Shown: one piece after another, positions 1 through 20,539 of the stretch
Layout: every line of letters starts with the position of its first letter
Position numbering within the stretch: the first letter of the stretch is position 1
Assembly: GCA_048887225.1 (NCBI GenBank)
Contig: JBHLJY010000029.1
Location: forward strand, 1-25,175
Reading direction: 5' to 3'
Origin: Candidatus Hodarchaeota archaeon
Lineage (GTDB): Archaea; Asgardarchaeota; Lokiarchaeia; Sigyniarchaeales; SOKP01
DNA: 25,175 nucleotides
Program-made: the position numbers and the translations under genes
The notes under the pieces: generated by a model
Told to the model about the DNA's origin: nothing
Databases searched by the model: none
Seen by the model: the letters and a program-made list of their open reading frames with translations, nothing else

Positions 1-2
1 AG

Positions 3-338
3 GAACATCTTAAGGTTAAGAAAAGAGAAGCAGCTCTAATTGCTAACTTGTATAAATCAAAATTAGATAAAGAGAAAATTGAAAAGGAATATGATTTAGA
101 GGTTGCACAAAAGAAAGTTTCTAACATGGTTGACGAAGCTATTAAAATAGCAAGAGAATATGAATTTGCTATCCGAAGAGGTTTACAGTCTGAAGACCAA
201 AGCACCTATTTAAGAGTAATCGAAATTTTTAAAAAAGTTAGAACAATGGTTTTAGAACATGGACTAAAAGACCAAGCTGAGATATATACTAAACAAATTC
301 AATTGTATCAAAATAAACTAAAATCTATGAATAAATGA
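3..338 (+). CDS. 3' end of a helical-repeat protein (5'-truncated by window), paralogous to the downstream 1474-aa protein
   Basis: The frame is open from position 3 (EHLKVKKREAALIANLYK...), so the TTG at 48 is probably not the start. The segment VSNMVDEAIKIAREYEFAIRRG...YLRVIEIFKKVRTMVLEHGLKDQAEIYTKQIQLYQNKL matches the repeat unit of the next gene. Its stop overlaps the next start (ATGA, 335-338). Confidence 0.85.
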   Translation, partial: EHLKVKKREAALIANLYKSKLDKEKIEKEYDLEVAQKKVSNMVDEAIKIAREYEFAIRRGLQSEDQSTYLRVIEIFKKVRTMVLEHGLKDQAEIYTKQIQLYQNKLKSMNK

Positions 339-3300
339 GCAAGATGGACGAAAATATTAATAAAAAGGAAAAAAACAACGAGGATTTCGATAATGAAGAA
401 CTGAAACGCCCCAAAGATGATTTTTTCGCCGATTTAATTGAAATGGATGATGAAGTCACCACCGAGGCCCTTGAGCTCGTTGAACATGCTTCATCTTTAA
501 TTGATTCGCAATTCTTTGATGATGCGATCGAAATTCTGCGTAAAGCTATTGCTTTATATAGCGAAATCGGTAGGGATGATGAGATTGATACAATAAACCA
601 AAAAATTTCAGAAATATATATTTTGAAAGAACAGGCATTTAGAGAAGGTGAATTTGAACCTATCAAAATTCCAGAAGAATTAAGAACGCAATACATTGAT
701 AATGAGCAATTAGTAGAAAAAATTGAAGAGGATTTGTCCCAAATAGCAGAAAAATTAATTGAAGAAGCAAATAAATTATTAGAAATTGATGAATTTGACG
801 AGGCGATTGAGAAATATGACGAAGTTATTAAGATATTTCAAAAAGAGAAAAAAGAATCTGAAATTGAAAAAATATATGAATTAATAGATAAATGTTACGA
901 TGCGAAAGCTGAATTTCTAAAAAGACCTAAAGTAGATTTAGAGATCCAAGAAACCTCAAAAATGGAAGAACCTGCTAAATTAAAGGACGAACTTAAAGAA
1001 AAAGAAAAAGCTAAAAGAATTGCTGAAATTGAAAAGAAAAAGCAAGATGAAGAGGATTTTCGAAAAAAAATTTCATATATGACAACTGAAGCTGAGAAAA
1101 TGGAAAGAGAATACGAGCTTAGTATTAAAAAAGGTAATTTTGATTTAGAGCCTCCATTCAATAAAATTATAGAAATTTATAAGAATATTCAGAGTATGCT
1201 TCTCGAAAGGGAATGGAAAGAGGAAGCTAATATATATTTTAATCAAATTAAATTAATTAAACAAAAATTAGAAAAAGATAAAAAACTACGAGAGGTTGAA
1301 GCTCAGAAAAGAGAACGGGATAAAGAATATTTAGAATCTTTTAAAATTAAGAAAATCGAAGGTGAGGATTTAGATAGATTAAAAGCTGTTGAAACAAAAC
1401 GCAGAGTAGACGAAAGGTTTCAACAACAAATCGATAAGATGGTTGGCGAGGCTGAAAAATTAGATAGGAAATATGAATTAGAAATTAGAAGAGGGAATTT
1501 TGACACAGAACCTCCTTTTGAAAATGTTATCAAGATTTACGAGGATGTAAGAGAATTGCTTCTTGAAAAAGGTTGGAAAGATCAAGCTAACTTGTATTGG
1601 AACCAAATAAAATTAGTTAAAGATAAATTAGAAAATGATAAGAGATTGAGAAAAATCGAAGCTCAGAAAATTCAAAAACAAAAACAATATGAAGAAATGA
1701 TAAAGACAAAAAAAGAAGATAAAATATTAAAAGCAGATCTAGAAGAATTAAAGGAAATTGAGACACGTTATCAAAAAGAATTAGAGGACGAAAATTTCGA
1801 AAATAGAATAACTAGCTTAGTTGATAAAGCGGATAATATGGTTAGAAAATACGAATTAGGCATTAGGTATGGCCAATTTTTTCAAGAATGTGTATATCCA
1901 ACGGTTATTAATATTTACAAAGAAATAAGAAAAATGCTGTTAATGAAGGGCTGGAAGGACGAGGCACAGATCTATTACAATCAGATAAAACTTTACGAAG
2001 ATAAGTTGGAACAAGATAAAAAATTAAGGGAAATTGAAGCTCAAAAAAGAGAACGAGATATGGCATATCTAAAATCGCTAAAAACTGCCAAAGAAGTAAG
2101 TATTGATTTAGAAAAAATGAAAACAATTGAAGTAAAATATAAAGAAGATGAGATTTTTCAACAAAAAATTAATGATATGGTTACTAAGGCCCAAAGAACT
2201 CTAAAAGAATATGAATTAGAGATTAGAAAGGGTAATTTTGATACCAAATCTCCATTTAAAGAAACTATTGAGATATATTCCGATGTTCACAAAATGCTTA
2301 TTAAAAGAGGTTGGGTTGATCAGGCTAAAGTTTATTTAAATCAAATTGAATTAATTAAACAAAAACAAGAAAAAGACAGAAAATTAAGAGAAATCGAAGC
2401 TCAAAAAATACAAAAACAAATGGAATTCGAAGCACAACTAAAAGTTAAAAAAGGAGTTAAAGGACTTGAATTTCAAAAGTTAAAAGAGCTTGAAATTAAA
2501 AAAGGTGAGGGAGATATCTTAATAGATAAAGCTTTCAGTTTCATTGAGGAAGCTGAAAGGATAGTAAAAGACTATGGATTCAAAATAAAAACGGGTATAT
2601 TGTTTTATAAAAATCCCTACGATAAAGTTATATCGTTGTATAAAGAAGCGAGAAAAATATTTTTAGAAAATAATTGGGAAACTGAAGCTTCTCGTTTAAT
2701 TAGTACCATCAAATTTTATAAAGATAAACAGAAGAAAGACGAAAATTTACGTGCTTTGGAAGTAAATAGATTAGCTAAAGCAAAAGAAAAGCCTGAGGCT
2801 CCTATAATCAAGCCGAAAAAGAGGATTTTAGAAAAAGAGGAAATGATTTCAGAATTTGAAAAAGAGAAAAAAAAAAGAGAGGAATTATCGAGTGAAGCAT
2901 TTGAAATGATCGATAAGGCAGAAAAATTAGTGAAAGTTTATGAATTTAATCTAAAGGAGGGTCTCTTTTTAGATTGCCCCTACGAGCAAGTCATTGATAT
3001 TTATAGAAAAGCAAGAAAGAGATTTGAGGAAATCGGTTGGGAAGAGCAATCAGCTAATTTAATAAACACAATTAACCATTATAAAGAAAAATTAGAAGCA
3101 GATAAAAAATTAAGAACATTAGAGAAGGAAAAAATTGAAAAACAAAAGAAGGAATTAGAGGAGCGCCAAAAATTAGCAGAGAAAGCCAGAAAGAAAAAAG
3201 AAGTGATGCTTAAACAAAGAGAAAGGGCCTTATTGGTAAAAAGTAAAGAAATATCCCCGTTTGAAACTCAAAAAGATCACGCCTTTAGACTCATGGATCA

Positions 3301-4759
3301 AGCTAAATATCAATTTAATATGAACAATTTTGACCTTGCGATTGAATTATATAAAGAAAGCGAAAATATTTTCTCAAAAATAAATTGGCCAGCAGGTATT
3401 AGAATGATTAAAGACTCAATTCAATTAATTTCTAAGAAAAAAGAAGAATTTGGACTTAGACAGAAAGTTATTGAAGAAAAAGAATCTGAAGCGTTAATTT
3501 CAGAAAAAAAATTGGGAGAAAAAATAGCTGAGTCTCAGGATTTACTGAAATTGCAACAAGAACGGAAGAGAAAAGAATTATTAAGAATTCAAGAACAGAA
3601 AGCAAAAGAAAAGGAAGCTTCAGATAGAGCATACGATTTACTTGAACAAGGAACAAGGCTATTAAATCTTAAAAAATTCGACGAAGCATACGAAAAATAT
3701 ATCTTGGCTCGCAATATTTTTACTCAAATTGGATGGGTTCATGAAGTTAGCCGTATTAACAATGATCTCTTGCTTAAACTTAAAAAAGACGAAAAGATGA
3801 GTAAAAAACAAGAAGAGTATAAAATAAAGAAAATACAAGAAGAAAAAGAAATTGAAACTCTGTTAAAAGAAGCAGAGATACAAAAGGAGGAGCTTAAAAA
3901 GGTTAAGGAAAAAGAAAAGCGTGAGAAATTGTTTAAAATTCAGATTTCCGATAAAATTAGGGGAAGAATAAAAGATAAACTAAATGAAGCAAATATTGAA
4001 ATTATTAAATTCAAATATAATGAAGGGATATTGATCCTCAAAAATGTTATTGAAATGATGGAAAAATTAGGCTGGAAAAAGGAAATCGAAGATGTAAATG
4101 AACAAATCCAAGTAATAAAAACAAAGAGCCAAGTCCCTCTTGTTGTTTTGGAGGAATTTGATGCTAATGAGAATATGCAAAAAATAAAATCTGCATACGA
4201 GGCATTAGATAAAGCACAAATGTCGGTGTTAAAAGATCGCTTTATGAAAGCTATTTCGGAATTAAATGAAGCAAAATTCAACCTTTCTGAAACTAAAATA
4301 AGAAAGAAATTCATACAAGAAATCGAAGCCAAAATTGAATCTTTCAAAAAAGAAGTTGACAAGAGAATAAAAGTTAAATCAGTGCGGGAAGCTAAAAAAA
4401 TCGGAGAAAAAGAAGCTGCGAAACTTACAGCTGAAAAAGCATATAATTTTATGGACAAATGCAAAAAAGCAGAGAGGCGAAATAGATTTGAAAAGGCAAT
4501 AGAATGTGCTATGGAAGCTAAAAATATTTTTTCTGAAATGGGTCCAGAGTGGATTAAAGAACAAGAGACAATAGATAAATACATAGACTCTTTAAAAAGC
4601 AAAAAGATAGAAAGAGAGCAGTTGTTTAAGCGTAAAAAAGAAGAAATTGAGAAAAAAGAACAATCTTTAAAGAAAGAAGAACAAGATTTCAAGGCAAGAA
4701 TAGCCGCCAGAAGAGAAGAAAGACGTAATAGGATTAAGGAATTAATGAAAAAAAAATAA
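335..4759 (+). CDS. Giant (1474 aa) K/E-rich helical repeat/coiled-coil protein with ~13 MIT/TPR-like three-helix units; function unknown
   Basis: Long ORF with a recurring pattern A-x-x-(L/M)-(I/V)-x-x-A ... (F/Y)-x-x-(A/V)-I-x-(L/I)-Y ... (F/L)-x-x-x-(G/N)-W ... I-x-x-(I/Y)-K, separated by charged coiled-coil linkers. No Walker motifs or transmembrane segments are visible. Confidence 0.85.
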   Translation: MSKMDENINKKEKNNEDFDNEELKRPKDDFFADLIEMDDEVTTEALELVEHASSLIDSQFFDDAIEILRKAIALYSEIGRDDEIDTINQKISEIYILKEQAFREGEFEPIKIPEELRTQYIDNEQLVEKIEEDLSQIAEKLIEEANKLLEIDEFDEAIEKYDEVIKIFQKEKKESEIEKIYELIDKCYDAKAEFLKRPKVDLEIQETSKMEEPAKLKDELKEKEKAKRIAEIEKKKQDEEDFRKKISYMTTEAEKMEREYELSIKKGNFDLEPPFNKIIEIYKNIQSMLLEREWKEEANIYFNQIKLIKQKLEKDKKLREVEAQKRERDKEYLESFKIKKIEGEDLDRLKAVETKRRVDERFQQQIDKMVGEAEKLDRKYELEIRRGNFDTEPPFENVIKIYEDVRELLLEKGWKDQANLYWNQIKLVKDKLENDKRLRKIEAQKIQKQKQYEEMIKTKKEDKILKADLEELKEIETRYQKELEDENFENRITSLVDKADNMVRKYELGIRYGQFFQECVYPTVINIYKEIRKMLLMKGWKDEAQIYYNQIKLYEDKLEQDKKLREIEAQKRERDMAYLKSLKTAKEVSIDLEKMKTIEVKYKEDEIFQQKINDMVTKAQRTLKEYELEIRKGNFDTKSPFKETIEIYSDVHKMLIKRGWVDQAKVYLNQIELIKQKQEKDRKLREIEAQKIQKQMEFEAQLKVKKGVKGLEFQKLKELEIKKGEGDILIDKAFSFIEEAERIVKDYGFKIKTGILFYKNPYDKVISLYKEARKIFLENNWETEASRLISTIKFYKDKQKKDENLRALEVNRLAKAKEKPEAPIIKPKKRILEKEEMISEFEKEKKKREELSSEAFEMIDKAEKLVKVYEFNLKEGLFLDCPYEQVIDIYRKARKRFEEIGWEEQSANLINTINHYKEKLEADKKLRTLEKEKIEKQKKELEERQKLAEKARKKKEVMLKQRERALLVKSKEISPFETQKDHAFRLMDQAKYQFNMNNFDLAIELYKESENIFSKINWPAGIRMIKDSIQLISKKKEEFGLRQKVIEEKESEALISEKKLGEKIAESQDLLKLQQERKRKELLRIQEQKAKEKEASDRAYDLLEQGTRLLNLKKFDEAYEKYILARNIFTQIGWVHEVSRINNDLLLKLKKDEKMSKKQEEYKIKKIQEEKEIETLLKEAEIQKEELKKVKEKEKREKLFKIQISDKIRGRIKDKLNEANIEIIKFKYNEGILILKNVIEMMEKLGWKKEIEDVNEQIQVIKTKSQVPLVVLEEFDANENMQKIKSAYEALDKAQMSVLKDRFMKAISELNEAKFNLSETKIRKKFIQEIEAKIESFKKEVDKRIKVKSVREAKKIGEKEAAKLTAEKAYNFMDKCKKAERRNRFEKAIECAMEAKNIFSEMGPEWIKEQETIDKYIDSLKSKKIEREQLFKRKKEEIEKKEQSLKKEEQDFKARIAARREERRNRIKELMKKK
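1052..3150 (+). repeat. Six ~120-126-aa intragenic tandem repeat units (first four most conserved)
   Basis: The Ala codon of the EAQK anchor recurs at 1301, 1661, 2039 and 2399 (spacing 360/378/360 nt). The motifs YEL.I..G.F, GW...A..Y.NQI.L and KDKKLRE.EAQK repeat. Boundaries are approximate. Confidence 0.85.
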
Positions 4760-4770
4760 AAAAAAGATTC

Positions 4771-5004
4771 TTATATTAACAATTTTTCTCGTAATTCGCT
4801 TTCTATTTGAGGCTCGATTGTTCCTGGGCTAATATTTTTTCTAACTGATTCTTCAATTAAATATTCTGTTTTAATGAGATCCCTTATCCCAACTCTAATT
4901 GCTTCACTTCTATTTGGGAACTTTCCATCCGCAACTAATAATTCTAAGACTTTAATATAAGCCTCTGGCAGATTTACCGATATTAATTTAATTTTTATCA
5001 CCAT
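4771..5004 (-). CDS. Ribbon-helix-helix (CopG/Arc/MetJ) transcriptional regulator, CdrS-like
   Basis: KLISVNLP beta-strand followed by helix-helix with the G.FPNRSEAIR..IRDL signature typical of archaeal RHH proteins, including CdrS. The true start may be ATT at 4992 (see findings). Confidence 0.85.
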   Translation of the reverse strand: MVIKIKLISVNLPEAYIKVLELLVADGKFPNRSEAIRVGIRDLIKTEYLIEESVRKNISPGTIEPQIESELREKLLI

Positions 5005-5203: not shown

Positions 5204-5268
5204 AAAAAATAGCTGACATCAAAGCTCAATTAAAAGAGCATCTTCAAAATGGAAAAGATTGGGAAAAA

Positions 5269-5532
5269 ATGGAAACTCCTATTGATGGAGTGTATGTCGT
5301 GAAGGTTCCTGCTACTAAGATCCGCCCTTCCTTATTGTTTTTAGAAATAAATCCATTAAGAGATGACGGAAAACCCATGAAGAAAAGAGGCCTTTTTGTT
5401 GGAGATAGAGAAATGCTCATAAAATTTAGCGAAACTTTAAGCGATGATAAAGTTTATCAATTAATTGGCGAGTTAGAACAAGTTAATCCTGAGGTAAAAG
5501 GGGCAGGATTGACTAAGAAGTTGAAAATGTAA
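5269..5532 (+). CDS. Conserved-looking small archaeal hypothetical protein, possibly PC4/Sub1-like ssDNA-binding fold
   Basis: Beta-rich GVYVVKVP...LFLEINP..DGKPMKKRGLFV followed by helices. The frame is open upstream to an ATA at 5209 preceded by AAGGTGAT, so the protein is probably ~107 aa. The fold call is inference. Confidence 0.7.
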   Translation: METPIDGVYVVKVPATKIRPSLLFLEINPLRDDGKPMKKRGLFVGDREMLIKFSETLSDDKVYQLIGELEQVNPEVKGAGLTKKLKM

Positions 5533-5680
5533 TTCTAAATGTGTATTGATTTAATTTTTTCTTTTGAAAATCTTTATTTTCGAAAAAAAAAATTTTTAAT
5601 TACATTTACATAATTTATTACATATACAAACAAACTATAAGTCGTAATAAATTTCCTTAGAAAAAAATAGGTGGACATAT

Positions 5681-5950
5681 TTGGCTGAAAAAATTTGTTC
5701 AGAATGTGGTGGAAAATCGTTTAGAGTTGTCAATGATGAGTGGATGAAAAGAACTTTTAGGTTCGTTGAAAACGGCACCCTTGAAATGTGTGATGGATGT
5801 GGAGCTAAATTTCTTGTATGTGAAGAATGTGATGGTCTTTATACTCGAGTACATCCAGCACTTGAAGCTTGGGAAGTTTCAAAACAATGCCCATCGTGCG
5901 GTCATGTAGATCCTGAAGTCAAGGCTTGGGATGGAGTATCAGCGAGATAA
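5681..5950 (+). CDS. Small double zinc-ribbon protein (4 CxxC)
   Basis: CSEC, CDGC, CEEC and CPSC motifs. TTG start preceded by the SD-like AGGTGG at 5669-5674. Confidence 0.8.
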   Translation: MAEKICSECGGKSFRVVNDEWMKRTFRFVENGTLEMCDGCGAKFLVCEECDGLYTRVHPALEAWEVSKQCPSCGHVDPEVKAWDGVSAR

Positions 5951-5951
5951 A

Positions 5952-5981
5952 TATTTTTTTAATTTATTTCTTTAATTTTTT
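5952..5981 (+). terminator. Oligo-T archaeal terminator candidate after the zinc-ribbon gene
   Basis: T-runs directly after the stop codon. Confidence 0.45.
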
Positions 5982-6190
5982 AAATTCTGAATTTAGGATT
6001 AAATAAAATAAAACTTAATATTAATTTCTCGCTCTCTTAAAATTTTTATAAAAGAAAAATCAAAATTTATAAGAGATAATTGAATAAAAATTACATATCT
6101 TTTAGTTTAATTATTAAGTAAAGCATAAGAAAATAAAAATTAAGTTAAAAAAACGTAATTTTAATCAACAATTCGTTCTAATGGTTTATC

Positions 6191-6652
6191 ATGAATAATA
6201 TTAGAGTTGAGATTGCTTCTCCAAAGCATATAAATGCGTTAGAGAATTTTACAAGACAATTAGTAGAGGGTTTAGGCCAGAAATTTGATTCTAAGCGCTT
6301 CGATTGGGGAATCAGTAGAAGACTTTATGATCCACTTCAACGTCATGGAATTTTGATAGCTATTGATGAAGATACTGACGATCCAGTAGGTATGATAATA
6401 GCAGAGCTTCGAATAGATCCATTTGGTATGTCAGAAGGATATATTAAGCAGTTTTTTTTAAAGAGCAATTATAGAAAAAAAGGCATAGGACGGATTTTAT
6501 TACAAAAAGCTCTCGACCATTTGAAGAAAATCAAGGTTGAAAGAGTAAAAGTAAATATTAAAGATGAAGCTGTAGAAGCCTTAAAACTTTACGAAAAGAT
6601 GCATTTTAAGAAAATTTATGAGGTTTTAGAATTAGATCTCACAAAAGACTAA
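6191..6652 (+). CDS. GNAT family N-acetyltransferase
   Basis: Acetyl-CoA binding motif A (YRKKGIGRILL), a preceding beta-strand GYIKQFFL, and C-terminal A..LYEKMHF. Confidence 0.85.
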   Translation: MNNIRVEIASPKHINALENFTRQLVEGLGQKFDSKRFDWGISRRLYDPLQRHGILIAIDEDTDDPVGMIIAELRIDPFGMSEGYIKQFFLKSNYRKKGIGRILLQKALDHLKKIKVERVKVNIKDEAVEALKLYEKMHFKKIYEVLELDLTKD

Positions 6653-6674
6653 TTATTGAATGCTTAAGGGATAA

Positions 6675-7658
6675 ATGATGACACTTGATTTAGAGATCCC
6701 TTGGATTGAAAAATATAGGCCTCAGAGATTTGATGAGATAGTAAGTCAAAATATTGCAATAAATAGTTTAAGAGATTTTGTCAAAAAAGGTAACATGCCT
6801 CACATGATCTTTACGGGGCCCGCAGGAACAGGAAAGACAAGTACAGCTTTGATAATAGCAAAAACATTACTAGAAGGTGAAAAATACTATAGAAATCTTT
6901 TAGAATTAAATGCCTCAGACACGGTGAGAATGCAATATATAAGAGATATCCTTAAATCCTTTGTTAATTCAAGTATGATGATAGAAGAAGATTCTTTAAA
7001 AATTGTTATTTTAGATGAAGCAGATAATATTCCTGGGCAAGTTCAACAAGCACTTAGACGAATTATGGAACGGTCTTCAAGAAATGTAAAATTCATTTTA
7101 TTATGTAATTATATAAATCGAATAATAGATCCAATTATTTCTAGATGCGCAGTATTTCGATTCGTTAACCTTCCTAAGGAGAAAATTGTGGAAAGATTGA
7201 AATATATCGCAAAGCAAGAAAACTTGCCAATTCCAAACAATAAAGTGGAGATATTCTTTGATACTCTATATTTTATCTCAGGAGGTGATTTAAGGAAAGC
7301 AATAAATACGCTACAAATGTCAGTTGCTCTTGAATTATTAGAAAATTTAGATGTCAATGAAATTCTAAAAATATCTGGATTTGTGGATCAAGAAACTTTA
7401 GAGAAGTTTATGGAGGCATTTCAATCTAAAGATTTCGAGAGTGCAAGAGAAATATTAAGTTCAATTGAAACTTTTGATAGTAGAAACTTTATCAGACAAC
7501 TTATAGATATTGTGTCAAGGATTAATTTAAAGTCTGATAAAATTCACTATTTGCGTGCGCTTTTTGGTGATATTGATTTCCGAATAAGTCAAGGTGCAGA
7601 CGAGAAAGTTCAGATATTAGCTCTAATAGCTGAGATTATAAATCAAGTAGATAAATGA
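6675..7658 (+). CDS. rfcS: Replication factor C small subunit (catalytically intact)
   Basis: PWIEKYRP, Walker A GPAGTGKT, ELNASD, Walker B ILDEAD, QQALRR, sensor-1 CN, SRC arginine finger, sensor-2 GDLR. No intein. Confidence 0.95.
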   Translation: MMTLDLEIPWIEKYRPQRFDEIVSQNIAINSLRDFVKKGNMPHMIFTGPAGTGKTSTALIIAKTLLEGEKYYRNLLELNASDTVRMQYIRDILKSFVNSSMMIEEDSLKIVILDEADNIPGQVQQALRRIMERSSRNVKFILLCNYINRIIDPIISRCAVFRFVNLPKEKIVERLKYIAKQENLPIPNNKVEIFFDTLYFISGGDLRKAINTLQMSVALELLENLDVNEILKISGFVDQETLEKFMEAFQSKDFESAREILSSIETFDSRNFIRQLIDIVSRINLKSDKIHYLRALFGDIDFRISQGADEKVQILALIAEIINQVDK

Positions 7659-7668
7659 GGATAAAAAC

Positions 7669-8718
7669 TTGAGTGAAGATATTCCGATTTGGAGAATTAA
7701 ATATTTACCAAGAACGTTGGATGATATTTGCGGTAGGGAAAAAATTAAGGAAAGATTAAAAAAAATTATTAAGCAGAGAAATTTTCCACATCTTTTATTC
7801 GTAGGCTCTGAAGGTATTGGGAAAACAACTTTAACAACTTTATTTTCAAAAGAATTCCTTGGTAGATATTATGATGCGAATTTTAAATTGGTATATGCCA
7901 ATGTTCCGTTAACGGTGGAGGAAAGAAAGCAAGCGGAGGCTGAAGTACATGTTCCAACAAGTAGAATTGGAAGTACGGCGGGGAAAACTTTTAGACCACC
8001 TTGGTTTATTCAGGCTAGAGTTAAACCTTTTGTTCAATTGAAAGTGTTTGGAGACGTCCCTTTCAAAATCTTGATTATTAAAAATTTTGATGCCCTAAAT
8101 AATACCAATATGCAAGGTTTTAGAAGGGTAATGGAAATTTATGGTTCTAATTGTAGAATGATCTTGATAACAACTAAAATTTCTGGAGTAATTGACCCTA
8201 TTGTGAGTCGATGCCAATTGTTTTTAATTTCTCAAGTAGATCTTGACTCTTTTAAAGAATTAATGAATAAAATTGCTGATAATGAATCGTTTGAAATTGA
8301 AGACAATGTTATAGAAACACTTTATAATATTTCTGAGGGAAAACTATCTCGAGCGATAGATATATTGCAATTATCAAGTATAAGTGGAAAAACCATAGAT
8401 TCGAATAAGTTGTTTGTATATTCTCAAAAATTTCAAAATGATTTAATTAGGAGTTTATTATTGATGGCATTAAGAGGAGACTTTCCAAAATCAAGAGATC
8501 TCTCGCGAAATATCATATCCACTTATAAGTACACACCTCACGAGCTTTTTAATATCATACTTAACGAACTTAATAAACTGCCGCTAAGTAAATTTGCCCG
8601 AGCCCATTTAATTAATTTAATTGCTGATGCTGATTTCAGGGCTCTCGATAGTCTAGATGGAGACATTCAAATATCTGCGTTGTTGTCAAAAATTTGCTTA
8701 TTTTCAGAACATTTATAA
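7669..8718 (+). CDS. Divergent second replication factor C small subunit (RFC-S2-like), predicted ATPase-inactive
   Basis: IWRIKYLP, PHLLFVGSEGIGKT, RRVME, IDPIVSRC and a C-terminal collar (ADADFR...IQISALL) are RFC-S-like. Walker B reads IIKNFD and sensor-2 reads GKLS. TTG start after a GAGG motif. Confidence 0.9.
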   Translation: MSEDIPIWRIKYLPRTLDDICGREKIKERLKKIIKQRNFPHLLFVGSEGIGKTTLTTLFSKEFLGRYYDANFKLVYANVPLTVEERKQAEAEVHVPTSRIGSTAGKTFRPPWFIQARVKPFVQLKVFGDVPFKILIIKNFDALNNTNMQGFRRVMEIYGSNCRMILITTKISGVIDPIVSRCQLFLISQVDLDSFKELMNKIADNESFEIEDNVIETLYNISEGKLSRAIDILQLSSISGKTIDSNKLFVYSQKFQNDLIRSLLLMALRGDFPKSRDLSRNIISTYKYTPHELFNIILNELNKLPLSKFARAHLINLIADADFRALDSLDGDIQISALLSKICLFSEHL

Positions 8719-8736
8719 GAAATAATGGTGAAAAAA

Positions 8737-10098
8737 TTGGCTAAAAAAAAATCTGTCAAATTAAACGTTCCATGGGTCGAAAAGTACCGGCCCAAAAGTG
8801 TCAAAGAAATGGCCCTCCCAACAGCTAAAGTTGGCGGGCATAGAGTTAATTTGGCAGAAGATTTAACGAAGTTTATAAAAAATTTTTTCAAAGAAATGAA
8901 AAGAATAAATGCTGAAAATAAACTTATCAGAGCAAATAATAGAACTGCTTCGGAAAAAGTAAAGAAAGAAGAGATAAAAATGGCTCCTGAAAGAGCAGCA
9001 GTATTATTAGAAGGACCGCCTGGAATTGGAAAAACTTCTATTGTTTATGCTTTAGCAAACGATTTAAATATGGAAGTGATTGAAACAAATGCTTCTGATA
9101 CTCGAACAAGAGAAGCACTCGAAAATAAATTGAAAGAAACTATTAAATCTCGAGGGATTATGGATTTTGTGGCTCAATCAAAAAAAAAACTCATTCTTAT
9201 TGACGAGATCGACGGCATTTATGGAACGAGAGATAGAGGAGCAGTTCCCACAATAGTGGATTTAATTCAAAATACACAATTTCCGATTATTATGTGCTCC
9301 AACGCGTACAAACAAAGTTTACAACCACTTTATAACAAAATTCGAAAGTTTGAAGTTCATTCATTATCTGAAGATGATATGATAAAAATTGCTCAAAACA
9401 TTCTCAGAAAAGAAAATATTATAAATCTTAAAAAGGATGATTTGGACCTTATCGTTAAAAAGAACAATGGTGATTTAAGAGGTGTTATTAATGATATTCA
9501 GGGAATTGCTCAAGGTTCGACTGAAATAGATAATAAAGAGTTAATATATAGTTTAAATAGGGACAGTACAGAGGAGATTTTTGCGTTAATTAGAGATTTA
9601 TTTCAAAAAACTACAACATTAAGAGAAGTTCGAGATTTAACTGATAAATCGGATGTCGATTATAATTTTTTATATAAATGGGTAAACGAAAATCTACCAA
9701 CATTCATTAAAATCAATAAAGAACTAGCAAACGCTTACGAAAATCTCTCTTTGGCTGATGAGATTTTTGGACGTATTCGAAAAAATCAATACTGGGGGTT
9801 GCTGCCTTATTTTTACGATCTCTTTACTGGGGGAGTCAGCCTGGCACAATTACATAAAACTAGCGGTTTTCGAAGAGTTTTATTCCCGAGATATGTGATA
9901 GGAGGAGCATTCTCTTTAACCAATGCCGAGAAGGATTTAATTGAAAAAATTAATAAAACTTACGATATATCGCAAATTGAAGCAATACAAGACTTTATTC
10001 CATTCTTAAAGATTTTATGCAACAGTTCACGACGACAATTAAAAAACATTAGTGAGTGGCTTGAATTAGATGCGAAAGAAAAGAAGTTATTAAAATGA
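8737..10098 (+). CDS. rfcL: Replication factor C large subunit
   Basis: PWVEKYRPKS, Walker A GPPGIGKTS, ETNASD, KKLILIDEIDG, GDLRGVINDIQ, WVNEN, AYENLSLAD, YWGLLPY. Start placed at TTG 8737 (GGTGA SD 5 nt upstream); the ORF track gives ATG 8725. Confidence 0.93.
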   Translation: MAKKKSVKLNVPWVEKYRPKSVKEMALPTAKVGGHRVNLAEDLTKFIKNFFKEMKRINAENKLIRANNRTASEKVKKEEIKMAPERAAVLLEGPPGIGKTSIVYALANDLNMEVIETNASDTRTREALENKLKETIKSRGIMDFVAQSKKKLILIDEIDGIYGTRDRGAVPTIVDLIQNTQFPIIMCSNAYKQSLQPLYNKIRKFEVHSLSEDDMIKIAQNILRKENIINLKKDDLDLIVKKNNGDLRGVINDIQGIAQGSTEIDNKELIYSLNRDSTEEIFALIRDLFQKTTTLREVRDLTDKSDVDYNFLYKWVNENLPTFIKINKELANAYENLSLADEIFGRIRKNQYWGLLPYFYDLFTGGVSLAQLHKTSGFRRVLFPRYVIGGAFSLTNAEKDLIEKINKTYDISQIEAIQDFIPFLKILCNSSRRQLKNISEWLELDAKEKKLLK

Positions 10099-10536: not shown

Positions 10537-10696
10537 TCTTAACACAAATTTTGAAATATTATTTTGTATTACATCTAATAAAATTCCTTTATTGTTAAAG
10601 ATAAGGAATAGGCGTAAAAAAAAGAATTAGATTAAAATAGAGAATTATATTAACCAAATTATTATAAAAAATTTATTATAAATAATGGTGACTAAC

Positions 10697-12232
10697 ATGT
10701 CCAAAGTTAAAAGTGCCTATAAAGAAATAGAAGATGTGATTGGACCTGATTACATTACAGATAAAGATTTCATGAAAGCTGCGTATTCTCGTAATGTAGA
10801 TCCTTCCTTTCCTGATAGATGGGCTGATATGATTGTGAGACCAGAGACCACAGAAGAAGTTTCGGAGATCGTAAAGATTGCGAATAAATACAAAATTCAT
10901 ATGGTTCCTCGAGGGGGTGGCGCTGATCTAGTAGGTGGCTCAGTTTCAGAAGGGGGAATTTTAATTGACCTTACAAGAATGAATCACATTTTAGAGGTTA
11001 ATGAAGATGATTACTACATTATAGTTGAATGCGGTGTTACATGGGGGGCTTTACTTTCAGAATTGCACCCAAGAGGATATACAACAGGTGTTATCGGACC
11101 AGGAAGTGGTTTTGCTGCAACTATAGGTGGAGGGCTTTCTAATAGCACTGCTGGTGGTGGCTCGACTAAATATGGGTTAGTTCCAGATATATGTTTAGGC
11201 GTTGAAGTTGTATTACCCAATCCTCAAGGAACAATTATAAAAACAGGAGCAGCTGCCAATAAATACGCTAAACCATTCTGTCGATATGGAGTTGCACCAG
11301 ATTTTACTGGTCTCTTTATGGGAGATGTAGGAACAATGGGGATTAAAACAAAAGCGTACATGAGAATCTTCCCAGATCCACCATATAAAGCACAAAGAAG
11401 TTATATGCTTCATAAGAACGATTATAATAAAGTATTTGAACTTGCACATAATCTACGGAATGAACTTGGGAATGGTTTAGTTAACTTATCCGTTCTTCCA
11501 CTTATGGTAATTCAGCTTTTGGCGTCTACAGTAAAGGAAAAACCTAAAAAAAGAACAAGATTAAGAGGTCCCGCTTTTGGGATAATGGTTGAAGCAACTG
11601 ATCCACGAATATTAGACGTTCACCTTGAAAAAGTTGAAGAGATCATGACAAAAGATGAAGTGTCTCGTCGGTTTGAATGGGACGAAATCGATCCAAGCTT
11701 AGTATCCCCAAAAGAATGGAGCTATAATTTAAAACAGACTTTTAATTACTTTCAGAGATATATTTCAGTAGCCCCTCCAAAAGTATCATGTACTACTTGT
11801 CATAAGGTGCCAATCTCAAATCTACCCCAAATTTCACAAAAGGCACAAGAATTCGATAGTACGCATAGAAGCGAATTTCCACCTGGAAGTATGTCTTTTT
11901 GGTCCACGATTGTATATTTTTTACCTAATGGAAACTGTGTTCTTGTTGGGGGGTTTAATGCTGATAATTTAGATGACCAACGTGAAATTTCGATGAATTT
12001 GTGGCATAAGAAATTAAGGCATCAAGTTCGGTATGGTGGAGTTCATTACTGGCTTGGCGAATCAATTTCGCAATCAATTCTTGAAGCTGATGCTTATTCC
12101 CCAGAATTTGTACAATTTTTCAGAGATATGAAAAAAGCAGTGGATCCTAATTACTTATTATCTCCAAATAAATTCCATTTATATTCCTACGATTATGATT
12201 ATACAAAACATATTGTAAAAGACGAAGAATAA
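10697..12232 (+). CDS. FAD-binding oxidoreductase (FAD_binding_4 / GlcD-DLD superfamily), copy 1
   Basis: VRPETTEEV, PRGGG..L.GG, IDLTRMN, ATIGG, KYG, G.EVVLP, G..GTMGI, K...DP..LLSP.K. Start at ATG 10697 (GGTGA 5 nt upstream; N-terminus MSKVK matches its paralog). Confidence 0.9.
   Translation: MSKVKSAYKEIEDVIGPDYITDKDFMKAAYSRNVDPSFPDRWADMIVRPETTEEVSEIVKIANKYKIHMVPRGGGADLVGGSVSEGGILIDLTRMNHILEVNEDDYYIIVECGVTWGALLSELHPRGYTTGVIGPGSGFAATIGGGLSNSTAGGGSTKYGLVPDICLGVEVVLPNPQGTIIKTGAAANKYAKPFCRYGVAPDFTGLFMGDVGTMGIKTKAYMRIFPDPPYKAQRSYMLHKNDYNKVFELAHNLRNELGNGLVNLSVLPLMVIQLLASTVKEKPKKRTRLRGPAFGIMVEATDPRILDVHLEKVEEIMTKDEVSRRFEWDEIDPSLVSPKEWSYNLKQTFNYFQRYISVAPPKVSCTTCHKVPISNLPQISQKAQEFDSTHRSEFPPGSMSFWSTIVYFLPNGNCVLVGGFNADNLDDQREISMNLWHKKLRHQVRYGGVHYWLGESISQSILEADAYSPEFVQFFRDMKKAVDPNYLLSPNKFHLYSYDYDYTKHIVKDEE
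10811..10926 (+). repeat. Near-identical 116-nt tract shared with 12394..12509
   Basis: Direct comparison gives 3 mismatches in 116 nt, all synonymous. Confidence 0.9.
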
Positions 12233-12279
12233 GTAATCAATATAAAAATTATATAAAAAACAAATTTAAGTGAAAATAA

Positions 12280-13821
12280 ATGTCAAAGGTTAAAAATGCG
12301 TTTAAAGAAATTGAGGATGTAATAGGGGCAGAGTTTATAACGGATAAAGATTTCATGAAAGCCGCTTATTCTCGTAATGTTGACCCTGCTTTCCCTGATA
12401 GATGGGCTGATATGATTGTGAGACCAGAAACCACAGAAGAAGTTTCGGAAATCGTAAAGATTGCGAATAAATACAAAATTCATATGGTTCCTCGAGGTGG
12501 TGGCGCTGACCTCGTAGGAGGTTCCGTAACAGAAGGCGGGATTCTTATAGATCTTACTAGAATGAATAATATTTTAGAAATTAATGAAGATGATTATTAT
12601 TGTGAAGTTGAATGTGGAATCACCTGGGGTGCGTTATTATCAGAATTGCATCCAAGAGGGTATACTACAGGGGTTCTTGGTCCAGGTTCTGGATTTAGTG
12701 CTACAATCGGTGGAGGACTTTCAAATGCTACTGTAGGTTTTGGATCGACTAAATATGGAGTAGTACCAGATATATGTCTAGGCGTTGAAGTAGTTCTTCC
12801 TAATCCTCAAGGAACCATCATTCGAACAGGAGCAGCAGCTAATAAATATGCAAGACCATTTTGCCGCTATGGAGTCGCACCTGATTTTACAGGTTTATTT
12901 ATGGGTGATGTCGGGACAATGGGAATTAAAACTAAAGCTTTTTTACGACTTCATCCAGATAGTCCATACAAAATAATGAGACATTATATACTCAACAAAA
13001 ACGATTATAATAAAGTTTTTGAACTAGCACATAGATTACGCAATGAAGTTGGTAGTGGAATACGTGATTTAATTGTTGTACCAACCATAATTGTTCAGCT
13101 TATGGCGAGTCAAACTGAAAATAAACCTGCTAAAAGACCGAGGTTGAGAGGTCCCGTTTTTACAATACATCTAGAGGCATTTGATCAACGAATATTAGAT
13201 ATTTACTTAGAAAAAGTTGATAAGATTATGACGAAAGATGGTGTTGCTCGACTATTTGAATTTCAAGAACTCACTTTAGACGCAGAATTAGCGAAGGATT
13301 GGAATTTTAATTTAAAGTACGCTTTTAACTTTTTTAATTTAGCAATATCAACAGCTCCACCTAAGATTTCCTGCACCACTTGCCATAAGGTTCCAATCTC
13401 TTCCATGGCACCACTTGTAAAAAAAGCTACTGAATTTGATACCAAATACCAAAAATTAGGTGAGTTTCCACCTGGAAGTATGTCGATATTTGCTATGGTC
13501 ATATTTTTTCTGCCTAACGGCGGATGCGTATTCGTTGGGGGTTTTAACGCTGATAATTTAGATGATCAACGCAAAATTGCGATGAATATATGGCATAAAA
13601 AAATTAGACATCAAGTTCGGTATGGAGGTGTGCACTATTGGCTAGGGGAGGCAATTTCACAATCTATAGTTGAATCTGATGCTTACACACCTGAATTTGT
13701 ACAATTCTTTAGGGATATGAAAAAAGCAGTGGATCCTAATTACTTATTATCTCCTAATAAATTCCACATGTATAGTTATGATTATGATATTTCAAAGCAT
13801 ATTATAAAAGATGATGAATAA
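12280..13821 (+). CDS. FAD-binding oxidoreductase (FAD_binding_4 / GlcD-DLD superfamily), copy 2
   Basis: Tandem paralog of 10697..12232 with the same FAD-binding motifs and a diverged central cap domain. Confidence 0.9.
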   Translation: MSKVKNAFKEIEDVIGAEFITDKDFMKAAYSRNVDPAFPDRWADMIVRPETTEEVSEIVKIANKYKIHMVPRGGGADLVGGSVTEGGILIDLTRMNNILEINEDDYYCEVECGITWGALLSELHPRGYTTGVLGPGSGFSATIGGGLSNATVGFGSTKYGVVPDICLGVEVVLPNPQGTIIRTGAAANKYARPFCRYGVAPDFTGLFMGDVGTMGIKTKAFLRLHPDSPYKIMRHYILNKNDYNKVFELAHRLRNEVGSGIRDLIVVPTIIVQLMASQTENKPAKRPRLRGPVFTIHLEAFDQRILDIYLEKVDKIMTKDGVARLFEFQELTLDAELAKDWNFNLKYAFNFFNLAISTAPPKISCTTCHKVPISSMAPLVKKATEFDTKYQKLGEFPPGSMSIFAMVIFFLPNGGCVFVGGFNADNLDDQRKIAMNIWHKKIRHQVRYGGVHYWLGEAISQSIVESDAYTPEFVQFFRDMKKAVDPNYLLSPNKFHMYSYDYDISKHIIKDDE

Positions 13822-17160: not shown

Positions 17161-18837
17161 ATGTCAACGAAAAAATTTAGATTAACTACAAGAACTATTT
17201 TAAGAGATGTAATTAAATATAAAGCAGAAACTGTGCCAGATAAAGTTTATTTGACATTTATTAGAGATTTTGATAAGGAAATTGATGAAAAATACACCTA
17301 TAAAGAGATAGATTTACTCTCCAATCGTTTAGGAAATGGATTAATGAATCTCGGAATAAAAAAAGGTGATGGTATTGCCCTTATGGAAATTAATTCTCCT
17401 GAATTTTTGTTAACTGTTTTTTCCACGTTTAAATTAGGAATTTATTGTGTTATGGTTAATACGGCCTTAAGAGGAGATGGTTTAAAATTTATCATAGATC
17501 ATTCAGATGCATCAACTATTATTGTTCATTGGTCCTTTTTAGATGCGTTCAAAGAAGTTAAAAATCAAGTACCTAAAATTCAGCATATAATAGTCGATAT
17601 TAATGAAGCACCAGCAGATTATAAATTGCCAGAAGGAATAATATCATTCCAGGATGTAATGCAGGCTTCTGATGATGAAATAAATGTAGAGATTAGTCGT
17701 GATGACCTGGTTATGTTGATGTATACTGCTGGTACAACAGGTCTTCCTAAAGCTACAATATTTCGGCAAAATAGATTGATAGGAGGAAATAATGTCCAAA
17801 CACTAGTAAATCTATCCCAAATGCCCCAATTATTTGGTAGACCAGATGATATTCTTTACACTTGTTTGCCATTATTCCATGCGAATGCATTGTATCTAAC
17901 GTGTATACCAGCTTTTTTCTCGGAAAAACCTTTGATTCTTGCGAAAAGATTCAGCGCTAGCCGACATTGGGATATTTGTCGCAAATATGGTGTTAACCGA
18001 TTTAATGCTCTCGGTGCTATGATCCCCATTTTAATGAAACAACCTGAACAACCCAATGATAAAGATCATAAGGTAAGAGAAGTGTTTTCCGCAGCTTGTC
18101 CTAAAGAAGTGTGGGTTGCTTTTGAAGAAAGATTCAATGTGAAGATATTAGAATTTTATGCAGCAACAGATGGAGGGGGTTTTATACTGGGAAATTGGGG
18201 GCTAGAAGATGTACCTGTAGGATCTATGGGACAGCCACCACCAGGATCTATCGCAGAAATTATGGACGATAATGGTAATCTCCTGAAACCTGAACAAGTT
18301 GGAGAATTAGTTTTTTTGGTAAGAGAAAGTGAAAAAAAACAAAGAGAAGTGAAATATTACAAGGATGAAGATTCCTCAAAAAGTTTAATATCAGAAGGAG
18401 CAGATAGAAAAAAATGGTTCCATACAGGTGATTTAGCATACAAAGATAAAGATGGCTGGTTTTTTTTCGTAGATAGAAAAAAGGATTCTATTAGAAGGCG
18501 TGGTGAAAACATCGCATCATATAGTATTGAAAAAATAATTAATTTAAATAGCAAGGTTTTAGAATCAGCAGCTTACGGTGTTAAATCGGAATTGGGCGAA
18601 GATGAGGTAATGGTTGCTGTTGTCTTAAGACCAGGGGAAACCATGACTCCTGAGGAACTATTAGATTTCTGTCAAGGAAAGATGGCTTATTTTATGATTC
18701 CTAGATATATCGACTTTGTTGATAACCTTCCTAAAAACGAAGTACATAGAATATTAAAGCGGATTCTTAAAGAACATGGAATAACACCAAACACATATGA
18801 TAGAGAAAAAGCAGGTTATGTTTTAAAACATAATTAA
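17161..18837 (+). CDS. AMP-binding acyl-CoA ligase, CaiC (crotonobetaine/carnitine-CoA ligase)-like, copy 1
   Basis: YTAGTTGLPK, LPLFH.NA, RFSASR.W, EFYAATD, FHTGDL, FVDRKKD.IRRRGENI. Confidence 0.92.
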   Translation: MSTKKFRLTTRTILRDVIKYKAETVPDKVYLTFIRDFDKEIDEKYTYKEIDLLSNRLGNGLMNLGIKKGDGIALMEINSPEFLLTVFSTFKLGIYCVMVNTALRGDGLKFIIDHSDASTIIVHWSFLDAFKEVKNQVPKIQHIIVDINEAPADYKLPEGIISFQDVMQASDDEINVEISRDDLVMLMYTAGTTGLPKATIFRQNRLIGGNNVQTLVNLSQMPQLFGRPDDILYTCLPLFHANALYLTCIPAFFSEKPLILAKRFSASRHWDICRKYGVNRFNALGAMIPILMKQPEQPNDKDHKVREVFSAACPKEVWVAFEERFNVKILEFYAATDGGGFILGNWGLEDVPVGSMGQPPPGSIAEIMDDNGNLLKPEQVGELVFLVRESEKKQREVKYYKDEDSSKSLISEGADRKKWFHTGDLAYKDKDGWFFFVDRKKDSIRRRGENIASYSIEKIINLNSKVLESAAYGVKSELGEDEVMVAVVLRPGETMTPEELLDFCQGKMAYFMIPRYIDFVDNLPKNEVHRILKRILKEHGITPNTYDREKAGYVLKHN

Positions 18838-18865
18838 AAAATATTCTAAATAAAAGAGATTTGAA

Positions 18866-20539
18866 ATGTCGGTAAAAAAGAAGTTTCGAGTAACAAGACG
18901 AACATTATTAAGAGAACTTATTAAACATAAAGCAGAAACAGTAGGAGATAAAGTTTACATGACATACATTAGAGATTTCGATAATGATATTGATGAAAAA
19001 TACACCTATAAAGATATGCATATATTATCAAATCGCCTAGGAAATGGTCTTTTAAATTTAGGGCTTAAGAGAGGGGACGGCGTAGCTTTAATGGAAATTA
19101 ATTCTCCCGAATTTTTATTAACTGTTTTTGCTGCATTCAAAACGGGAATGTATTCCGTTATGGTTAATATTGCTTTACGAGGCGATGGTTTAAAATTTAT
19201 TATAGATCATGCTGATGCGTCGGCTATCATTATTCACTGGTCTTTTTTACAATCATTATTAGATATTAAAGATCAACTGTCCAAAATTAAGTATGTAATA
19301 GTTGACGTTAATGAAGCAGAAGCAGATTTTAAATTGCCAGAAGGAATTGTATCTCTCCAAGAAGTTATGCAAGCACCTGATGGTGATATTGATATAGAGA
19401 TAAGTCTTGATGACTTGGTAATGCTTATGTATACGGCGGGTACTACCGGTTTGCCCAAAGCAATACAATTTTGGCAAGGAAAATTGCTTGGTGGTCTTAG
19501 TATTCAAACACTTCTAAGTTTTGTTAATATGATGGCACAACCAGATGACGTTCTCTTTACAGCCTTACCTCTATTCCATTCGAACGCTTTATTTTTGACA
19601 AGTTTGTCTGCTTATTTTGCCGAAGTTCCTTTAATTCTTGGTAAAAGATTTTCAGCTAGCAGGCACTGGGATATATGTCGTAAATATGGTGTTACTACAT
19701 TTAATGCTTTAGGAGCAATGATTCCTATTTTAATGAAACAACCAGAAGGAGCAAATGATAGAGATCACAAAGTAAAAACTATAGGTTCTGCAGCTTGCCC
19801 TAAAGAATTGTGGGTTGCTTTTGAGGAGAGATTTGGTGTAAGAATTTCAGAAGGCTATGGTGCTACTGATGGAGGGGGATTTATGCTTACTTCTGGGGGT
19901 CGTGATGATGTACCTGTAGGATCTATGGGAAGACCATTACCAGGGGTGATTGCTGAAGTTATGGATGATAAAGGGATGATTCTTCCAGATTCAGAAAAAG
20001 TAGGAGAACTAGTTTTCTTAGTACCAGAAAGGGAATTAAAACAAAGAGAAGTTAAATATTATAAAGACGAAGAGTCATCAAAAAGTTTAATATTAAAAGG
20101 TGCAGATGGGCAATTATGGTTTCATACAGGGGATTTAGCATATAAGGATAAGGATGGTTGGTTTTTTTTTGTAGATCGAAAAAAAGACTCTATCAGAAGG
20201 CGAGGTGAAAATATTGCACCATTTTCTATTGAAAAAATAATTAATTTACACGACAAGGTTTTAGAATCAGCAGCATATGGAGTTAAATCAGAATTAGGTG
20301 AGGATGAGGTAATGGTTGCGGTAGTTCTAAAATCAGGAGAATCTATGACTCCAGAGGAACTTTTAGATTTCTGTCAAGATAAAATGGCTTATTTTATGAT
20401 ACCTCGATATATTGATTTTGTTGATAAGCTTCCTAAAAGCGAAGTACATCGAATATTGAAGCATTTCCTCAAAGAACGTGGAATAACACCAAACACTTAT
20501 GATAGAGAAAAAGAAGGATATGTGATAAAAAGAACCTAA
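18866..20539 (+). CDS. AMP-binding acyl-CoA ligase, CaiC-like, copy 2
   Basis: Tandem paralog with YTAGTTGLPK, EGYGATD, FHTGDL and FVDRKKDSIRRRGENI. Confidence 0.92.
   Translation: MSVKKKFRVTRRTLLRELIKHKAETVGDKVYMTYIRDFDNDIDEKYTYKDMHILSNRLGNGLLNLGLKRGDGVALMEINSPEFLLTVFAAFKTGMYSVMVNIALRGDGLKFIIDHADASAIIIHWSFLQSLLDIKDQLSKIKYVIVDVNEAEADFKLPEGIVSLQEVMQAPDGDIDIEISLDDLVMLMYTAGTTGLPKAIQFWQGKLLGGLSIQTLLSFVNMMAQPDDVLFTALPLFHSNALFLTSLSAYFAEVPLILGKRFSASRHWDICRKYGVTTFNALGAMIPILMKQPEGANDRDHKVKTIGSAACPKELWVAFEERFGVRISEGYGATDGGGFMLTSGGRDDVPVGSMGRPLPGVIAEVMDDKGMILPDSEKVGELVFLVPERELKQREVKYYKDEESSKSLILKGADGQLWFHTGDLAYKDKDGWFFFVDRKKDSIRRRGENIAPFSIEKIINLHDKVLESAAYGVKSELGEDEVMVAVVLKSGESMTPEELLDFCQDKMAYFMIPRYIDFVDKLPKSEVHRILKHFLKERGITPNTYDREKEGYVIKRT

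Follow-up and report, generated by a model that had tools for sequence, protein, structure and literature searches.

A giant protein encoded by a Candidatus Hodarchaeota archaeon (GTDB: Asgardarchaeota, Lokiarchaeia, Sigyniarchaeales, SOKP01; assembly GCA_048887225.1) is built as a chain of separate MIT/TPR-type three-helix bundles, with constant, conserved ends and a core of variable length. Its gene lies near the start of contig JBHLJY010000029.1, of which positions 1 to 25,175 (forward strand) form the stretch of DNA that was analysed (25,175 nucleotides (nt); hereafter the window), and consists of a full-length open reading frame (ORF) of 1,474 amino acids (aa), P0001, at positions 335–4759 (+). 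This architecture is well supported. The functional reading that we prefer, to which we give about an even chance, is that P0001 is a long, segmented, multivalent scaffold in which each bundle has an MIT-like peptide groove. The module is of a known kind; as far as the searched literature shows, the architecture and the family are undescribed.

Comparison of 120-aa pieces with the whole protein (self-BLAST) reveals a period of ~115–120 aa that runs from end to end, with the six central copies (aa ~203–927) sharing a mutual identity of 30–57%. A profile seeded on these six copies and iterated over orthologues recognizes 12 units at E ≤ 1 × 10−3, and therefore the long units of the centre and the short ones towards either end constitute one repeat family. 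A thirteenth unit, a degenerate hairpin at aa ~1268–1306, was seen by eye only. An earlier note on this DNA had counted about 13 units, which agrees with these figures, and the unit that it gave as an example (aa ~1092–1150) falls within the C-terminal block. It had also described an expanded loop in six central units and a tryptophan just after helix 2 in ten; we likewise count the expanded loop between helices 1 and 2 in six units, and find the tryptophan directly after helix 2 in nine, with that of the tenth shifted. The protein is highly charged (45% of residues; K 17%, E 16%). No repeat of ~360 bp was found in its gene using Tandem Repeats Finder; the repeats have diverged at the DNA level and are old in this copy.

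The features follow one another along the + strand. An acidic head (positions 335–412) is followed by the conserved FF.DL with which helix 1 of short unit 1 begins; this unit (aa 27–107, positions 413–655) is modelled as a three-helix bundle with a predicted local distance difference test (pLDDT) score of 92–98. An acidic linker (positions 656–733), variable in length among orthologues and disordered in the model (pLDDT < 50), separates it from short unit 2 (aa 134–196, positions 734–922), also a three-helix bundle. The six core repeats of ~120 aa each (aa 203–927, positions 941–3115) come next, followed by a C-terminal block (aa 929–1430, positions 3119–4624) with four profile-detected short units and the degenerate one, and by a basic C-terminal helix, near-invariant in the alignment of homologues, that ends in DFKARIAARREERRNRIKELMKKK (positions 4670–4756). 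In each core repeat, an expanded loop of 9 residues (G.[LF]...[CP]P[YF]) connects helix 1 to helix 2, which is 17 aa long; a GW turn then leads to the long helix 3, which runs into the conserved linker KLEKD.KLREIEAQK. Over 150 repeats, the Glu of its LREIEAQK portion is invariant (E86, 100%) and the Lys is conserved at 99% (K89). P0001 matched no membrane or signal family in Pfam, no dedicated transmembrane or signal-peptide prediction having been run, and because no membrane or secretion family matched we take the protein to be cytoplasmic, a provisional assignment.

We modelled two core units using AlphaFold2 (aa 357–589, positions 1403–2101; alignment of 150 natural two-unit segments), as well as the N-terminal 211 residues (alignment with 35 orthologues). 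The core model, with a pLDDT of 88.5 and a predicted template modelling (pTM) score of 0.46, has helices at residues 2–29, 39–55 and 59–104 and, after a break, at 108–155, 165–182 and 185–232. Within the unit, ~28 residues of helix 1 lie in the bundle and are followed by the 9-residue loop, the 17-residue helix 2, the GW turn and helix 3. This last helix extends ~19 residues past the bundle; a 3-residue break (pLDDT ~55) and a ~20-residue extension of the next helix 1 follow. The N-terminal model contains two separate three-helix bundles (pLDDT ~90–98), and the acidic linker of variable length between them has a pLDDT of less than 50. The linkers of this region are thus modelled as disordered acidic spacers, not as the coiled coils on which the earlier note had strung the units. 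Across the two models the pTM is 0.39–0.46 and the units are ~25–42 residues apart. Long Foldseek alignments of the models to TPR and SNAP arrays give root-mean-square deviations (r.m.s.d.) of 14–46 Å, and therefore the units form no solenoid in the models; the view that they are isolated rather than stacked is borne out.

Comparison of 90 complete homologues separates a variable core from constant ends. The region that precedes the first core repeat measures 304 ± 29 aa and comprises an acidic head and 2–3 short bundles; the region that follows the last one measures 463 ± 33 aa and comprises 3–4 short bundles and the near-invariant basic helix. Between them lie 5–11 core repeats (mode, 7). 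P0001 has six, and its N-terminal block of 203 aa is shorter than that of most homologues. The head of P0001 has a net charge of −9 over the first 45 aa and the tail a net charge of +7. In unit 1, many polar residues are invariant or nearly so across orthologues that are 35–64% identical, and over 150 core repeats polar stripes are conserved at 72–86% on helix 1 (E18, R22 and E25) and helix 3 (Q68, K75 and R83). The core linker has a hydrophobic seam (L82, I85, F96, M99, V102, the hinge, I111, L116 and L119).

The last ~25 residues of the tail are near-invariant in essentially all of the ~120 homologues listed (consensus ..[LF][KR]a[RK]IaaRR.ERRkk[VI]..L[LM]k). We compared it with the MIM1 pattern (D/E)xxLxxRLxxL(K/R), which has three hydrophobic groove residues. 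Four of the five MIM1 consensus positions fit the P0001 tail, which has an acidic residue, L/F, R/K, I and a final R at MIM1 spacing (..EDLRAKIAARR..); Ile for Leu has been reported in Asgard MIM1 motifs (PMC7240154). The two ESCRT-III proteins of this genome end in MIM1-like helices (DLEAELDRLK and KLEEEIEKLRKE), and the tail motif of P0001 occurs in no other ORF of the genome. Like the MIM1 of ESCRT-III, the tail motif lies at the extreme C terminus; unlike it, the P0001 tail runs on into a second basic amphipathic stretch (ERRKKV.DLL).

The likeness of the bundles to MIT domains, which the earlier note had proposed, is seen in both structure and sequence. Single bundles score Z values of 8–10.5 in exhaustive structural alignment, and their recurrent natural whole-domain matches are MIT domains: those of Sulfolobus Vps4 (2w2u_B; Z = 9.3, r.m.s.d. 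2.2 Å, 72 of 74 residues), katanin p60N (5lb7_B; Z = 8.4 and 10.3, the latter with r.m.s.d. 2.3 Å over 67 of 78 residues), NRBF2 (2crb; Z = 9.1–9.5), MITD1 (4a5x_B; Z = 8.5–9.0), spartin (4u7i; Z = 8.7) and the tandem MIT of calpain-7 (8uc6_B; Z = 9.1–9.3). NRBF2 is also matched by Foldseek (probability 1.00, TMt 0.64). The models and structural matches thus show the antiparallel three-helix bundle of ~70–80 aa that an MIT domain forms, which is a generic fold. P0001 units and MIT domains share this bundle and its TPR-like first hairpin and superpose with an r.m.s.d. of ~2 Å; the organism, moreover, has Vps4 and the two ESCRT-III proteins with MIM1-like tails. The core units differ from MIT domains in their 9-residue loop between helices 1 and 2 and in their conserved helix-3 extension.

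The Pfam MIT model (PF04212; cut-off, 30 bits) is passed by two of the five orthologues scanned (P0020, 40.9 bits; P0026, 30.2 bits), with the match falling on the second or third short unit, and by two paralogues in the same genome, one on contig C2 (79.7 bits, compared with 46.8 bits for the best TPR model) and one on contig C1 (38.1 bits). The unit profile recognizes these two paralogues at E = 3.6 × 10−36 and 1.5 × 10−107. Searched against PDB sequences, the short-unit profile matches consensus TPR proteins (E = 1 × 10−11, summed over repeats), gamma-SNAP (E = 3.8 × 10−5) and the MIT domain of VPS4A (E = 1.4 × 10−4). On the strength of these scores together, the units are homologous to sequences that Pfam calls MIT, with P0001's own units having drifted below the threshold. 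To our knowledge, described MIT proteins have one or two MIT domains, carried on an enzyme or adaptor; tandem-MIT proteins include Vta1/LIP5 and ULK3. P0001 differs in having 12–13 units per chain, without a catalytic or other domain.

Several results weigh against an MIT-like function. Searches of the whole of P0001 against Pfam and NCBIfam gave nothing above threshold and no MIT match; the best alignment to the Pfam MIT model scores 12.6 bits (E = 0.15; aa 138–196, model positions 4–65 of 66), well short of the 30 bits required. In a six-frame search the MIT model also matches 7 of 14 control genomes, the majority of them presumably without an ESCRT system, and therefore the model cross-hits TPR-like helices and borderline MIT scores are not specific. 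Aligned with the MIT domain of the genome's own Vps4 (hhalign), the short-unit profile gives E = 1.4 × 10−4, but with a probability of 52% over 30 columns. Neither model has a Foldseek match in the PDB at E ≤ 0.001. The scores of MIT domains are equalled by designed three-helix bundles (Z ~10) and by 1.5-TPR pieces of STUB1 and Sti1, and the structural aligner itself warns that Z values below ~13 are unspecific for helical bundles; for these reasons, we name the fold an MIT/TPR-type three-helix bundle and no more. In the tail, the third hydrophobic position of MIM1 is taken by an invariant Arg (R15/R16 of the tail alignment), so that the full motif is absent, and a tail profile searched against PDB sequences found no ESCRT-III chain, only a 10-residue chance match. 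Association with ESCRT or an AAA-ATPase, in the genome or within one protein, is lacking: the conserved neighbourhood contains no ESCRT gene in the loci examined, and the genes for ESCRT-III and Vps4 lie elsewhere, on contigs C14 and C2. The proposed MIT likeness therefore stands for the recurrent structural matches and for the orthologues and paralogues that pass the Pfam model, and fails for P0001's own score and for specificity over designed bundles and 1.5-TPR pieces.

The same data bear on a second explanation, that P0001 is an adaptor with dispersed TPR-type units and has nothing to do with MIT function (a co-chaperone, a NASP/SHNi-TPR-like chaperone of histones or acidic proteins, or a SNAP-like factor) and that the MIT matches are cross-talk, as their occurrence in control genomes would suggest. 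TPR, SNAP and SHNi-TPR (NASP) repeats share with P0001 the helix A/helix B signature ..A..L.....F.eAie.Y..A..., the unit profile matches consensus TPR proteins and gamma-SNAP, NASP and TPR chains are among the structural matches, and the C2 paralogue passes the SHNi-TPR model (24.2 bits; cut-off, 21). P0001 itself has sub-threshold matches to TPR_12 (23.9 bits; cut-off, 30.1), TPR_2 (22.8 bits in the N-terminal piece; cut-off, 27) and SNAP. Against this, the units are never adjacent and never stack, MIT scores above every TPR model in the paralogues, the TPR matches of the unit profile span one 22-residue helix-turn-helix signature only, and there is no chaperone or histone gene in the context. 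Compared with TPR and SNAP arrays, the hairpins of P0001 are single, each is capped by a third helix, and linkers of ~25–42 residues intervene. We consider such an adaptor improbable. A TPR solenoid in the strict sense (PF00515, PF07719 and PF13424), in which at least three 34-aa repeats adjoin one another and form a stacked superhelix, was rejected on the basis of the sub-threshold Pfam scores, the spacing of the units, the pTM values and the r.m.s.d. to TPR arrays, and a SNAP protein (PF14938) because the match of 24.1 bits (cut-off, 25) is local to aa 45–98 and the r.m.s.d. to SNAP chains is 14–41 Å.

A third explanation requires no repeated ligand. P0001 may be a purely structural, spectrin-like rod or filament former that acts as an elastic spacer, with head and tail joining end to end or the linkers forming a two-chain coiled coil. 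Spectrin-type rods, like P0001, have three-helix repeats (of ~106–120 aa), a last helix that leads into the next first helix and a variable repeat number; the ~120-aa period, the helix 3 that heads towards the next helix 1, the hydrophobic seam in the linkers, the opposite charges of head and tail, the 5–11 repeats between constant ends and the existence of stand-alone two-unit proteins (see below) would all suit a rod. P0001 departs from spectrin repeats in its short helix 2, which has 17 residues where spectrin has helix B, and in its hinged or disordered junctions: a variable hinge of low confidence interrupts the helix between repeats, and the N-terminal linkers are disordered and vary in length. 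Neither Pfam nor the 50 best structural matches yielded a spectrin family, and the short helix 2 and the break between repeats led us to reject the spectrin repeat, which has three helices of ~30 aa each and an unbroken C-to-A helix, as a family assignment. The conservation of polar surface positions at 80–100% across 150 repeats also argues against a purely structural rod; spectrin-type rods usually show less polar surface conservation. We therefore regard this explanation as rather unlikely, while giving it more weight than the TPR-type adaptor.

If P0001 is instead the multivalent scaffold that we favour, its bundles would act as MIT domains, which bind the MIM motifs of ESCRT-III between helices 2 and 3 or helices 1 and 3, and the groove of each bundle would take a short helical or peptide motif. 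Since each bundle would offer a groove, one chain could hold a repeated ligand in many copies, and so with avidity, or could engage several partners simultaneously, and the variable core would set the length, which would be of the order of 100 nm if extended. The ligands that come into question are, in order of preference, ESCRT-III-type tails presented on a polymer, the MIM1-like tail of P0001 itself, through which molecules could assemble head to tail or laterally, and another filament. That P0001 binds ESCRT-III or has a cytoskeletal role is purely conjectural. In the most specific form of the idea, which we think has only a slim chance of being correct, the protein would be a poly-MIT ‘ruler’ or cross-linker and a cytoskeletal accessory of Lokiarchaeota-type Asgard archaea: its 5–11 near-identical core bundles would line up along the repeating tails of a polymer (ESCRT-III or another filament), and the invariant MIM1-like helix at the C terminus would fit into a bundle on the neighbouring molecule, or into Vps4, creating a lattice that Vps4 could remodel.

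A word-indexed search returned 217 homologues, of which the 120 listed are 1,109–2,267 aa in length and annotated as hypothetical or with a generic TPR label; the named sources among them are Promethearchaeota/Lokiarchaeota. We did not find the family described in the literature searched, including Makarova 2024, Lu 2020 and Hatano 2022, which is consistent with the earlier suggestion that it is undescribed. Among 301 sampled genomes of the GTDB phylum, the core repeat (E ≤ 1 × 10−10) is present in 63 of 68 genomes of the archaeon's own family, in 4 of 7 of a sister family in the same order and in none from the other sampled groups, and a profile searched exhaustively against 1.84 billion representative proteins found no more than 169 matches at E ≤ 0.001. 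A few homologues carry the NCBI labels Thor-, Heimdall-, Hod- or Hermodarchaeota, which conflicts with the GTDB sample. As far as these searches indicate, the family is most likely specific to one (Lokiarchaeota-type) Asgard order. In the sister family, a closed genome (G210) encodes a homologue of 2,417 aa (L078:8434–15684, on G210:C1) with 17–18 units of ~126 aa, the N terminus and basic C-terminal helix of which (..ARIELRKKIRRALRHS) differ from those of P0001. No RNA run was listed with P0001 among the sequencing runs, only DNA runs from sediment metagenomes, one of them possibly the source.

The start of the window coincides with a contig end, which interrupts an upstream member of the same family. 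The 3′ end of this paralogue (positions 3–338 (+), 111 aa, open at its 5′ end) overlaps the P0001 gene by the stop/start sequence ATGA and is 38% identical to aa 454–563 of P0001 (BLAST), in keeping with the earlier observation of a translationally coupled gene with the same unit at its end. Contig C23 closes with 77 nt (G000:C23:42059–42135) that are identical to window positions 1–77 of the present contig (C29). The assembly break lies within the upstream repeat gene, and C23 and C29 almost certainly abut. The upstream ORF on C23 (L009:16379–18136, starting at L009:16379) then yields a joined gene of ~672 aa (586 + 111 − 25 overlapping residues) with six units and without the basic tail. Relatives in the same genus have a gene of 580–702 aa at the same position, which makes the join credible; in one of them this gene and the giant gene are 246 nt apart, and therefore the ATGA coupling is not conserved. 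The pair is thus not one of two giants, as the earlier note had supposed: the upstream gene represents a partial tandem duplication that occurs in this genus.

A contig break inside a repeat family, together with the K/E-rich composition, could point to a low-complexity or repeat ORF without specific function, or to an artefact of assembly in a repeat region. We judge this very improbable indeed. The ORF is full length and has over 200 relatives as well as a homologue at 91% identity, its repeats have diverged at the DNA level, its head and tail are strongly conserved, its models are confident and its synteny is kept in 8 of 8 loci examined (7 from the same family and 1 from the sister family).

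Gene order around the giant gene is conserved in all seven own-family loci examined (L009:14373–16228, window positions 5209–10098 and loci L074–L081). Genes for a Ras-like GTPase, a proteasome alpha subunit and a winged-helix-like protein of ~130 aa precede the giant gene, and those for a 107-aa protein, a small zinc ribbon, a GNAT acetyltransferase and two small and one large RFC subunits follow it. Housekeeping genes make up most of this neighbourhood, and so relatedness alone may account for the synteny. In the closed genome of the sister family, too, the 107-aa gene comes after the gene for the 2,417-aa homologue. In the Protein Atlas, the 131-aa neighbour has a winged-helix-like fold and the 107-aa protein resembles unnamed archaeal clusters; the search revealed no functional link for either flanking protein. 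The 107-aa gene (window positions 5209–5532 (+)) has an apparent ATA start at position 5209 with a AAGGTGAT motif just upstream; orthologues start with MAD(I/V)QAQLK.. at the matching position, and the first ATG (position 5269) would drop 20 conserved residues. The ATA may be a non-canonical start codon, or it may reflect an error in sequencing or a truncated gene. Between the giant and 107-aa genes lies an ORF of 77 aa on the opposite strand (positions 4771–5004 (−)) that looks by eye like a ribbon-helix-helix protein of the CopG/Arc type.

The unit profile finds four genes in the genome: those for P0001 and the upstream protein, one for a 590-aa protein on C1 and one for an 843-aa protein on C2. 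The C2 paralogue (L096:4336–6864 (−), equivalent to G000:C2:240335–242863) has 5–7 MIT-like units and is located 78 nt upstream of a 526-aa ThiF-family E1-like gene (L096:2680–4257 (−), equivalent to G000:C2:238679–240256), with genes for Ras- and Arf-like GTPases within 6 kb. Other genomes of the family encode stand-alone proteins of 220–225 aa that consist of exactly two core units and their linker (L098:1410–2072 (+) and L100:821–1498 (−)), and the gene in L100 directly follows that for a 189-aa Ras-like GTPase on the same strand. Elsewhere in the window there are two adjacent, highly similar pairs of paralogues, at positions 10685–13821 (515 and 513 aa) and 17161–20539 (558 and 557 aa), the latter of the acyl-CoA synthetase type by eye; both pairs look like recent tandem duplications within a metabolic cluster.

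Eukaryotes have no closer known relatives than the Asgard archaea, whose ESCRT, ubiquitin and cytoskeletal systems are being investigated as precursors of the organization of the eukaryotic cell. We have found no description of an architecture in which 12–17 MIT-like bundles form a chain whose core varies in length and whose ends are strictly conserved. Should the bundles bind one another or ESCRT-III-type tails, the protein would represent a new kind of multivalent organizer of membrane-remodelling polymers, and if the poly-MIT ruler were to prove correct, MIT–MIM recognition would have served large-scale architecture before eukaryotes arose. If there is no such binding, P0001 would still be a lineage-specific giant structural protein, present in nearly all sampled genomes of a Lokiarchaeal family.

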